NCBI GenBank assembly: GCA_024679065.1
Contig: JAGIQG010000008.1
Location: 47,244,001-47,308,000, forward strand
Direction of reading: 5' to 3'
DNA from: Sphyrna mokarran
Taxonomy: Eukaryota
DNA: 64,000 nt
In this document: positions 8,899 to 33,376 of the stretch, piece after piece
Position numbering within the stretch: the stretch's first letter is position 1
How the letters are laid out: every line of letters starts with the position of its first letter
Position numbers and translations under genes: made by a program
The notes under the pieces: generated by a model
The model's database searches: none
What the model saw: the letters and a program-made list of their open reading frames with translations, nothing else
Told to the model about the DNA's origin: nothing

Positions 8899-9042
8899 GT
8901 TCATCCATCTTTGGGCTTGGGAAGCAGTAAAATTCCTTATGTGTGATAAGATTGGGCAGTCCTCTAAACAGACTTCGACACAGTTTGCATTCAAAGATAG
9001 TGTCTACCTCTCTCAGCAGAACATGTTTCAGTTGTGTAGTTC
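8899..9042 (-). CDS. ZNF800: ZNF800 exon ([48 protein letters not shown]), 144 nt, first C2HC-like zinc finger
   Basis: Matches recalled ZNF800 [28 protein letters not shown]; acceptor cacacag|, donor AAC|gtaagt; phase 1-1. Confidence 0.97.
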
Positions 9043-10391: not shown

Positions 10392-10487
10392 CTGTCCGAA
10401 AACACTCAATGATTTGCTGAATTCCCGATTTTGAAGTTGGAAGCTGTTGTTGTAACAAAGGAGGGTCTCCTGGCTCCTGAGTGTATG
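10392..10487 (-). CDS. ZNF800: ZNF800 exon ([33 protein letters not shown]), 96 nt, phase 1-1
   Basis: Near identity to recalled ZNF800 [29 protein letters not shown]; acceptor tttacag|, donor CAG|gtacag. Confidence 0.96.
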
Positions 10488-12132: not shown

Positions 12133-12934
12133 GTGGTCTCTTTTCTTCTCTCACCTTGCAAATTGCTCCCTCATCTTTCAACCTGCTCCACTACCGGAAT
12201 CCCCCTCTCACCGATTCCCACTCTTGCAAAACCGCTTAATCATTTCCTTCTCCTAAACTAGTTCAAGATCCCAAAGCTGGAGCTCCAGGGCTGAAAAGTG
12301 CGAATCCTGATGACGCAGCAGTGTCAAACTAGGGCTTTTATAATCCAAATGTTTTTTTTAATTATCGAAGTGCCTCCTCCTGCATCTCACCACTCATTCA
12401 CAGAACCTGATTTTAAAACATGAATTGTAACATCCCCAGCTCAGTACCTGCGTACCATTAAGACTCTCACTTTCACAATCTGAAGCTTCAACATTGGATC
12501 AGGTCCGGATCCTGAACAGAAATGCAGGTTGGGCATGAGGGAGGCCAGGCAAGGAGGAACTTTAGGAAACACAAGAGGGGTTAGGGGGAGGAAGGGTCTG
12601 CTGCAGCCAAGAGAGTCAGAAGTTTGATGTGTTGTGAGCAGAAGGATCAGGAAGCAGGATCAGCAGTGAGTATAAGAAATCACAAGTAGAAGATTACCGT
12701 ACTTTTAAAGTTATTTTGTTTTCAAAGTTATTTAATTTATCAATAAGAATTCAACAATGTAAAATAAATCAACTTGCAAGTTGTAATCTCTTGTTTTTTG
12801 ATAAGGAAGTTCTTACAGAATCTAAATATATCGTTTACACTGGTTTTAATAGGAAAACACAATTGACTCAAATTACTTCACTTAAAAGTTGTGATTTTTG
12901 GGGACACAACTAAAAAAGTTTAAAGTGGACTTAC

Positions 12935-12943
12935 CATACAATC
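12935..12943 (-). CDS. ZNF800: Candidate 9-nt alternative microexon of ZNF800 (GATTGTATG, adds Gly-Leu-Tyr)
   Basis: Minus strand: CTAAT branch point, ~30-nt pyrimidine tract, two TGC motifs, ACAG| acceptor, 9 nt, then |GTAAGT donor; phase 1-1, frame preserving, no stop. Confidence 0.62.
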
Positions 12944-13087
12944 CTGTTTCCAGCATTATCAGCAAGTTATAAAGAAAAAGGGGAGGGAAAGAGAAAATCG
13001 GATTAGATTAAATATGGAGAACTTGATGATTTCTATTGCTTCTTAAGTAAATTTGTGAAGCTGATTTGCCAAGAGATTTTACCATAC

Positions 13088-13202
13088 CTGGTTCACAACA
13101 ACCGTGGTGGTGGTGCTCTGTCTGACAACATTTATCCCTCTGCAGTGTTTTCTGAATTCGTGACCTATTTTCTTCCGTATCAGTTTCATTCCGACTATTA
13201 TT
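13088..13202 (-). CDS. ZNF800: ZNF800 exon (NNSRNETDTEENRSRIQKTLQRDKCCQTEHHHHGCCEP), 115 nt, phase 0 to 1
   Basis: RDKCCQTEHHHHGCCEP matches the recalled human ZNF800 N-terminus (MPLRDKYCQTDHHHHGCCEP); acceptor ttttttgtgtctag|, donor CAG|gtatgg; frame open across the whole exon. Confidence 0.93.
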
Positions 13203-18984: not shown

Positions 18985-19023
18985 CAGATTTCGTTTGCGC
19001 AGTGCAGCATTTGTTCTATCCAT
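18985..19023 (-). CDS. ZNF800: ZNF800 putative first coding segment (MDRTNAALRKRNL) inside exon 19063-18985
   Basis: Minus strand: acceptor ttttccag| at 19064, in-frame TAA upstream of the start, strong Kozak gcaATGg at 19023, 13 codons, then donor CTG|gtaaat in phase 0, matching the phase-0 open acceptor of the next exon. Confidence 0.72.
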
Positions 19024-26599: not shown

Positions 26600-27760
26600 T
26601 TGCAGTTGTAATCTATTTGTACTCAGTGCGTTGAAAGCAAATAGCAATCCTGGTTTCTGTCACAATCTTCCATGCCTTTTTCATTAAGGTTGTGCAGTTG
26701 GAACAAACTGCTGCTTCTGACTGATGACCTTGAAAACATGAGAGATTAGCTGCTGTTGATGGCGGATTTTCAGGTCCCTGACAATCCTTTGGCTGGAGCT
26801 TAGCCATGGTGTTGGATGGCTGGAATAGTAGTTCCATGCACTTCAGGCCAGCGATATCTGGGTGCCTGGGGCAGTCGTCTTTCCTGATGACGATCTTCCT
26901 TTGCTTTCCTTGATACCTTTGGAACACTTTTCTGACCCATGCCTTAAACTTCCTGGAGGTCATCCAGGTGGTTTTGTTAGTCTTACAACGTATGAATCGT
27001 GCCCATCATTTGCAAAGCATCATGGTTTCTTGAACTTTCCAAGTACAAATAACAGCAGCTTTTTAGTGCCCTCCAGACTGGTGCCACATGCAGTATACAC
27101 TACAGCACTGACACATTCCTTGCTACACTTTCCATCATTAAACATTCCACCGGTAAACAACAGAGCTGTCTTGCAAAAAAAAGGCAAAACAGTTTCGTCC
27201 ATTTTAAGAATGTTTCTTGGTGCATACTCCTTCAAGAAGTGAACAACTTGAGTTTGCAGCCAATCATGTGTCGTTGCTGTCATAACCACTCTACCCTTAC
27301 CACTTACTGCTTGGAGGACTATGTCAAGCCTTGTCTCGAATCAGTCCAACTATCTGTTGACGCAGGTGATCCATGTAGTCCAAAACTGCTTTGCCAAGGA
27401 AACTCCCTTTCCCAGCAGGATTAGACTGGAGATGGGAACGTTTTCCGCTTACTGCCTTGAACCACATTACCAAAGCTTCTTCAACATCAGGATACGCAGT
27501 AGTTCTCATCTGCTTCCTTGCTGGAGAGAATGCCTGTTAGTCAAACAGTTCAAAAGGTGTTCACCTTGTGTTTCGTTATGGTGGCCAAACCAGATGGCAG
27601 AATCTGTCTTTTTTTTTTACAATGTCCACTTTCTCCTTCATGCCACTGTTTTCCACTTGCTGTCTCAACTTCATTTTTTCTCTAATCAACAATACTTAAA
27701 CTTTCTTGTAAGTTTAACCACACTTGCAGGTTTTGCACTTTTTACAGGGAGATGATGCTT
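26600..27760 (-). mobile_element. Tigger/pogo (Tc1-mariner superfamily) transposase fossil, frameshifted
   Basis: Colinear motifs: psq-like N-terminus, CENP-B HTH (RTTAYPDVEEALVMWFK), YAPRNILKMDET, GKCSKECVSA, LFVLGKFKKP, MTSRKFKAWVRK, KDDCPRHP, PSNTMAKLQPKD.QG of the DDE_1 domain. Confidence 0.9.
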
Positions 27761-32359: not shown

Positions 32360-33376
32360 AGCATTCTTTCTGGTTGTACCATAGCTTGATAAGGCTCCTG
32401 CTCTGCCTAAGACTGCAAGAAACTACAAAAGGTCATGAATGTAGCCCAATTCATCACGCAAACCAGCCTCCCATCCATTGACTCTGACTACACTTCCCTC
32501 TGCCTCGGCAAAGTAATCAGCACAATTAAGGACCCCACATACCCCAGACATTCTCCCTTCAGGAAAAAGTCATAAAAGTCTAAGGTTATGTACCAATCAA
32601 CCCAAGAACAGCTTCTTCTCTGCTGCCATCAGACTCTTGAATGGACCTACCTCGCATTAAATTGATCTCTTTCTGCACTCTAGCTATTACTGTAACATTA
32701 TATTCTGCATTTTCTTGTTTCCTTCTCTTTCAGAGTTGTGAGGTCAAGTTGCAACTGTACAAATCTCCAGTGCAGCCACACTTGGAATTTGCATACAGTT
32801 CTGGTCACCACATTATAAGAAAGATGTGGACGCATTGGAAAGGATGCGCAAGTGGTTTACCAGGATGTTGCCTGGTATAGTGGGAAGGTCTTATGAAGGA
32901 AGGCTGAGGTTATTTTCGTTAGAGAGGAGAAGGTTAAGAGGTGACCTAATTGAGGCGCACAAGGTGATCAGAGGGTTAGATAGGGTGGACATTGAGAGCC
33001 TTTTTCCTTGGATGGTGATGGCTAACATGAGGGGGCATAGCTTTAAATTAAGGGGTGGTAATTATAGGACAGATGTCAGAGATAGGTTCTTTACTCAGAA
33101 GAAAGTAAGAGCGTGGAGTATCTGCCTGCAGCAGTTGTGGATTTGCCAACTTTAAGGGCATTCAAATGGTCAGTGGATAGGCATATGGATAACATTGGAA
33201 ATAGTTTAGGTTAGAGGGTCATTAGATTGGTTCCACTGGTCGGCACAACATCGAGGGCCGAAGGGCCTGTACTGCACTGTAATGTTCTATGAGTGATATG
33301 TTTTGTCTGTTTGGCATGCAAGAAACAATACTTTTCACTGTACGTTAATTCATGTGACAATAATAAATCAAATCAA
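32360..33376 (+). mobile_element. Rex1/Babar-like LINE 3' end (32360-32729 and ~33288-33376) with a CR1 3' end nested at ~32730-33290
   Basis: Rex: aagaacagcttcttctctgctgccatcagactcttgaatgg and tail gtgacaataataaatcaaatcaaa; CR1: LYKSPVQPHLE, RLFSLERRRLRGDLIEAHK, RGHSFKL, FFTQ. Confidence 0.85.

Follow-up and report, generated by a model that had tools for sequence, protein, structure and literature searches.

A transcript-supported nine-nucleotide exon in shark ZNF800, probably a lineage-restricted microexon of the SRRM3/4 type

The ZNF800 gene of Sphyrna mokarran contains an exon of nine bases that is real and is spliced into RNA. It is probably a microexon of the SRRM3/4 type that is restricted in lineage, is absent from the ZNF800 records retrieved and gives rise to a mild protein variant. 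With moderate confidence, this in-frame exon is read as an alternative one that is included where SRRM3/4 are present (in neurons, perhaps also in endocrine cells) and likely skipped elsewhere. What is new is a transcript-supported exon without counterpart in the ZNF800 gene models retrieved; in addition, SRRM3/4-type microexons appear to be findable from a shark genome sequence alone.

The nine-base exon, its splice signals and its transcript

The window analysed here (the whole stretch of 64,000 nucleotides) is located on a 125-Mb contig of the 2.77-Gb assembly. Its minus-strand gene was identified as ZNF800 by means of the large exon just beyond the window, which shows 96% identity to the ZNF800-like protein of Mustelus asterias and is ~60% identical to amniote ZNF800. 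The N-terminal exons were aligned to reference protein P0002 by tblastn, yielding both an orthologous protein and a chain of exons (Table 1). The 96-nt exon at 10392-10487 (minus strand) is symmetric, and some of the isoforms annotated for amniotes leave it out (P0017, P0018 and P0060); its skipping would delete the EPGDPP...SKSGIQQI segment. An N-terminal extension of ~30-40 residues (18985-19023 and 13150-13202, minus strand) is found in the shark, coelacanth, bichir, gar and amphibian proteins, and amniote models without it begin at MPLRDK. An exon on the minus strand (L007), ~59 kb downstream from where the window starts, opens the coding sequence of a metabotropic glutamate receptor; we take this receptor to be GRM8-like, a name derived from human synteny with ZNF800. 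Broken open frames are present in the window at 26613-27340 and 32742-33155, presumably a DDE/Tigger-type transposase and the tail of a CR1/L2-type reverse transcriptase, which they resemble.

Table 1. Coordinates of the ZNF800 features in the window
Feature	Position	Strand	Basis
Start-codon exon, coding part (MDRTNAALRKRNL)	18985..19023	-	tblastn of P0002; donor from 18984; loose end of X1 contig matches
Exon upstream of microexon, 115 nt, ends ...HHHHGCCEP, phase 1	13088..13202	-	X1 contig, 0 mismatches
Intron before microexon, 144 nt, GT..AG	12944..13087	-	sequence
Branch-point-like CTAAT, start -63, putative branch A ~-60	13002..13006	-	motif scan; branch use inferred
Pure polypyrimidine tract, 27 nt, with UCU/CUC elements, ~25 nt back from AG	12971..12997	-	sequence
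Two UGC motifs in tract-acceptor gap, -21 (12964-12962) and -12 (12955-12953)	12953..12964	-	scan; role inferred
Microexon GATTGTATG, 9 nt, phase 1-1, Gly-Leu-Tyr	12935..12943	-	spliced contig of run X1
Microexon donor GTAAGT	12929..12934	-	sequence
Exon downstream of microexon, 96 nt, ends ...ECFRT	10392..10487	-	X1 contig, 0 mismatches
Next exon, 144 nt, CCHC-type finger	8899..9042	-	sequence, X1 contig

The first-pass annotation of this DNA had proposed a minus-strand microexon (12943-12935) 144 nt after the previous donor, and each element that it described was found at the place it gave. The frame is kept (phase 1-1) and Gly-Leu-Tyr is inserted, as it had also claimed: on translation, inclusion turns GCCEP-AYTQEPG into GCCEP-GLY-AYTQEPG. 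The SRRM3/4-type cis architecture that it had assigned to the site was likewise recovered, comprising a pyrimidine tract at some distance before the acceptor, UGC motifs in the intervening gap and a strong donor. In addition, the exon falls within the 3-27 nt size range, preserves the frame and has a distant branch-point-like sequence. No AG occurs from -80 to the microexon acceptor. The donor (G/GTAAGT) equals the consensus from -1 to +6; an approximate matrix, used in place of MaxEnt, gives it a score of 5.9 and the upstream donor one of 5.4. The motif scan returned a second YTRAY sequence at -68, and the CTAAT sequence also fits a QKI-type motif.

The rarity of this arrangement was assessed with an architecture filter, applied with a donor cut-off of 5 to 648 kb of strand sequence that contains 218 YAG-(3-27 nt)-GT pairs. 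Two of these pairs passed, namely the ZNF800 exon and a 21-nt exon of VTI1A, and 60 simulations of 64 kb under a second-order Markov model gave one match; as the filter was defined with the ZNF800 site already in view, only the VTI1A match and the simulation rate are independent. Orthologues of the VTI1A microexon in zebrafish and human are tabulated as neural and SRRM3/4-responsive in material accompanying PMC12626424 and PMC7935315. The architecture is more than chance.

Transcript data came from one public run (X1) of a single study, which has no tissue on record and whose RNA status is a guess made by the tool. A contig of 3,801 nt from this run spans three ZNF800 exons with 0 mismatches and jumps over a canonical intron of 1,349 nt. 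It carries seven letters between positions 13087 and 10488 that, together with the two flanking G, give the exact 9-mer GATTGTATG; within the 2.6-kb span this 7-mer is found a single time, in the microexon. Sequence at the loose ends of the contig corresponds to the start-codon exon and to the large exon, such that five ZNF800 exons are chained, and unique intron sequence is not covered by it. Since its ends fit these two exons, the contig represents a spliced ZNF800 mRNA that contains the microexon, and its splicing in turn supports the guessed RNA status.

An artefact, in which a chance motif coincides with a processed copy or with faulty assembly, would be suggested by the dependence on one contig of one run with a share of words of 0.05 and a guessed RNA status. 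However, the seven extra letters match the genomic exon core exactly and are unique in the intron span, the contig chains five exons, and only one place in the whole assembly matches the flanking exon, so that a processed copy (retrocopy) does not explain the spliced contig. This reading, which we regard as barely credible, is already largely refuted.

The splice joint GAACCAG-GATTGTATG-CATACAC foreseen by the first-pass annotation was thus recovered in its included form, in the spliced contig; the skipped form was not seen among the X1 contigs at a listing threshold of 1%. The main rival to control by SRRM3/4 starts from this observation. It holds that the exon is included broadly in the shark lineage, independently of SRRM3/4, being constitutive or nearly so or being used in muscle or heart as well, and that it is missing from gene models because aligners overlook exons of 9 nt or because the relatives do not possess it. 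The only run available has the included form and no skip joint, the strong tract, branch point and donor together with an upstream intron of 144 nt could permit intron definition, and some zebrafish neural microexons are reported to be included in endocrine, muscle or immune tissue as well (PMC12626424, in part). On the other hand, minor forms are dropped from contigs, so that the missing skip joint in X1 proves little and is not evidence of absence, and a set-back tract with UGC motifs marks regulated microexons, with the same filter singling out VTI1A. We consider broad inclusion unlikely; if it were true, the exon would amount to an annotation fix of little consequence. A neural origin of X1, if established, would fit the claim of a neural microexon, and a non-neural one would speak against it, as it would mean inclusion outside neurons.

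Occurrence in other vertebrates

The protein survey covered 421 ZNF800 proteins among the matches listed, with at most 15 members taken from each large cluster; 306 of them span the junction, and the other 115 either do not cover it or escaped the pattern used. A three-residue insert, corresponding to a spacing of 31 residues, was found in none of the 306 junction-spanning proteins among these matches, in agreement with the earlier impression that reference ZNF800 proteins have no such exon. The linker measures 28 residues in 172 of these 306 proteins and ranges from 24 to 52 residues. The skipped form was present in all 30 junction-spanning proteins from 22 cartilaginous fishes among the matches listed, which argues against broad inclusion. 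Gene models can miss exons of 9 nt, however, and the survey therefore documents a lack of annotation rather than a lack of the exon.

A bird ZNF800 locus (L008) with the whole orthologous intron is contained as host DNA in a metagenome collection, and the peptide of its exon is identical to 14 bird proteins. This single intron (2,239 nt) yielded no candidate microexon with strict or relaxed filters and no alignable similarity to the shark intron (best E 0.21). Conservation of the exon in orthologous introns, on which the first-pass annotation had set store, was accordingly not borne out by this one bird intron, and the protein models gave no sign of it.

Inserts at the same junction in teleosts (Megalops, Albula and others), where ZNF800 linkers comprise 34-52 residues, were weighed as possible orthologues of the exon and discarded: they exceed it by 6-24 residues, are variable, and occur in all junction-spanning models of the species concerned.

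Published exon collections were searched for the gene as well. None of 12 supplements of PMC12626424, one of which tabulates 708 neural exons of zebrafish, lists ZNF800. For PMC7935315, where 18 of the 19 supplements were covered, the gene has a single entry, which concerns expression, and none among the SRRM4-induced exons. The MicroExonator supplements (PMC7821500) gave 0 matches for Zfp800 and also 0 for the Vti1a control, and are thus uninformative. Titles of the literature on ZNF800 splicing and microexons, among the matches listed, do not name a ZNF800 microexon, and titles on lineage-specific origin yielded nothing of relevance. The distribution of the exon is probably confined to the lineage of this shark or to the cartilaginous fishes.

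A restricted distribution also leads to the reading that the exon is a recent, nearly neutral exonisation, that is, a cryptic AG-9-GT behind a pyrimidine run that is spliced in some tissues and has no selected function. It draws on the fact that no orthologue was found in the proteins, the bird intron or the zebrafish table, on a site that tolerates linkers of 24-52 residues predicted to be disordered, and on the many lineage-specific microexons reported for fish in part of PMC12626424. It is opposed by the assembly of the included form in X1 and by the simulations, in which the five elements plus frame arise about once per 60 windows. We hold it to be quite improbable; as it concerns function, it can be compatible with control by SRRM3/4.

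Proposed control by SRRM3/4 and predicted effect on the protein

SRRM3/4 targets are described as having a strong donor, a strong and distant tract and branch point, and, in the gap, an enhancer of the UCU/CUC...UGC form; the UGC motif is present in 79% and 74% of two sensitivity classes and helps inclusion, being neither strictly needed nor shown to be sufficient, and the cis-response to SRRM3/4 is conserved from shark to mammals (bioRxiv 10.1101/2024.09.17.613571, in part). Two exons encoding SRRM_C (eMIC, PF15230) were detected over the cut-off in the S. mokarran genome, on different contigs (L009 and L010), as sequence matches only; these are presumably SRRM3 and SRRM4. Judged by its sequence features, the ZNF800 exon likely belongs to the SRRM3/4 microexons. 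In the mechanism proposed, ordinary exon definition would fail on an exon of 9 nt, and the pyrimidine tract lies at a distance from the AG, a combination that, by the known mechanism, would lead to skipping by default; SRRM3/4 bound at the UGC motifs would then aid early spliceosome assembly and switch the exon on.

The first-pass classification as an SRRM3/4-type exon therefore stands as far as a real, spliced, in-frame exon with matching cis architecture is concerned, and it is left without support from the protein models and the one bird intron with respect to conservation. Several points count against control by SRRM3/4. Neural microexons are usually deeply conserved, and the genes overrepresented among their hosts are those that act in trafficking or at the synapse and not those for transcription factors, according to part of PMC12626424; an exon without orthologue in the proteins, the bird intron and the zebrafish table, located in a transcription factor such as ZNF800, departs from both patterns. 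X1 contains the included form only and is one run with no tissue on record, and the UGC motif is neither strictly required nor shown to suffice in published targets. Zebrafish alone has 246 neural microexons, many of them lineage-specific, and single deletions give mild phenotypes (PMC12626424, in part), so that one further microexon is unsurprising.

The consequences for the protein were approached with an AlphaFold2 model of Mustelus ZNF800, which was built from an alignment of 34 sequences and has a mean pLDDT of 52.6. Residues 2-71 show almost no secondary structure and a pLDDT of <50, a low value to which the shallow alignment may partly contribute. Gly-Leu-Tyr would fall at residues 51/52 of the Mustelus protein, ~20 residues before the first long helix; the first Pfam finger (102-124) is far from the insert, and all zinc fingers would stay intact. 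The insert would lengthen a linker, predicted to be disordered, between a D-K-x-C-Q-T-D/E motif and the helical CCHC-finger module. As the length of this predicted disordered linker varies across vertebrates, a small effect is probable, and the model suggests that the insert most likely provides mild tuning and no on/off switch.

The conserved (D/E)(K/Q)xCQT(D/E) motif is located ten residues upstream of the insert (13088-13130, minus strand; residues 35-42 of P0002), and the lamprey protein P0178 has KGTQT at this place. LC8 prefers D at -4, a positive residue at -3, a T-Q-T-type anchor and D/E/P at +2 in a disordered context, and CQT motifs occur among the LC8Pred predictions (PMC6607443, in part). 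By sequence comparison, RDKCCQT(D/E) of ZNF800 is a putative LC8 (DYNLL) motif that fits these preferences save for the Cys at -1. ZNF800 was not found in the LC8Pred supplements searched (PMC6607443), and no title in the literature search linked ZNF800 to DYNLL1.

Comparison with known systems

Variation at the same junction is already known from annotated ZNF800 isoforms and from the teleost linker extensions, none of which is a three-residue insert. In comparison with the neural microexons controlled by SRRM3/SRRM4, the ZNF800 exon is alike in its size class (3-27 nt), the maintained frame, the set-back tract and branch point, the UGC-containing gap and the strong donor. It is unlike them in that no orthologue was found in bony vertebrates, in that its host encodes a transcription factor and not a protein of trafficking or of the synapse, and in that it is known here from sequence and one contig. 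An example of the known class is the eMIC-dependent 21-nt microexon of VTI1A (HsaEX0070740 and DreEX0084665), whose shark counterpart passes the same filter.

REST provides a second comparison. SRRM4 switches REST to REST4 by means of a small exon in a zinc-finger repressor, the product being truncated (PMC5891588, in part), and ZNF800 in human is a repressor of enteroendocrine fate that binds NEUROG3, PAX4, INSM1 and SOX4 (PMC10819080, in part). Neural or endocrine control of the shark exon, if true, would make it a clean instance of a transcription factor that acquired or lost a microexon, and a parallel to REST, ZNF800 being the gene by which endocrine fate is repressed in the human gut. 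Extending the analogy, a REST4-like circuit can be imagined in sharks, in which Gly-Leu-Tyr, spliced in by SRRM3/4 behind the likely LC8 motif, would weaken or retarget repression by ZNF800 and thereby create a neuronal or endocrine feed-forward loop that was ancestral to jawed vertebrates and lost in bony vertebrates; we consider this highly improbable. In both systems, a small exon resides in a zinc-finger repressor of neuronal or neuroendocrine genes, and they differ in the outcome: the REST4 exon truncates the protein, whereas the ZNF800 exon adds three residues in frame.
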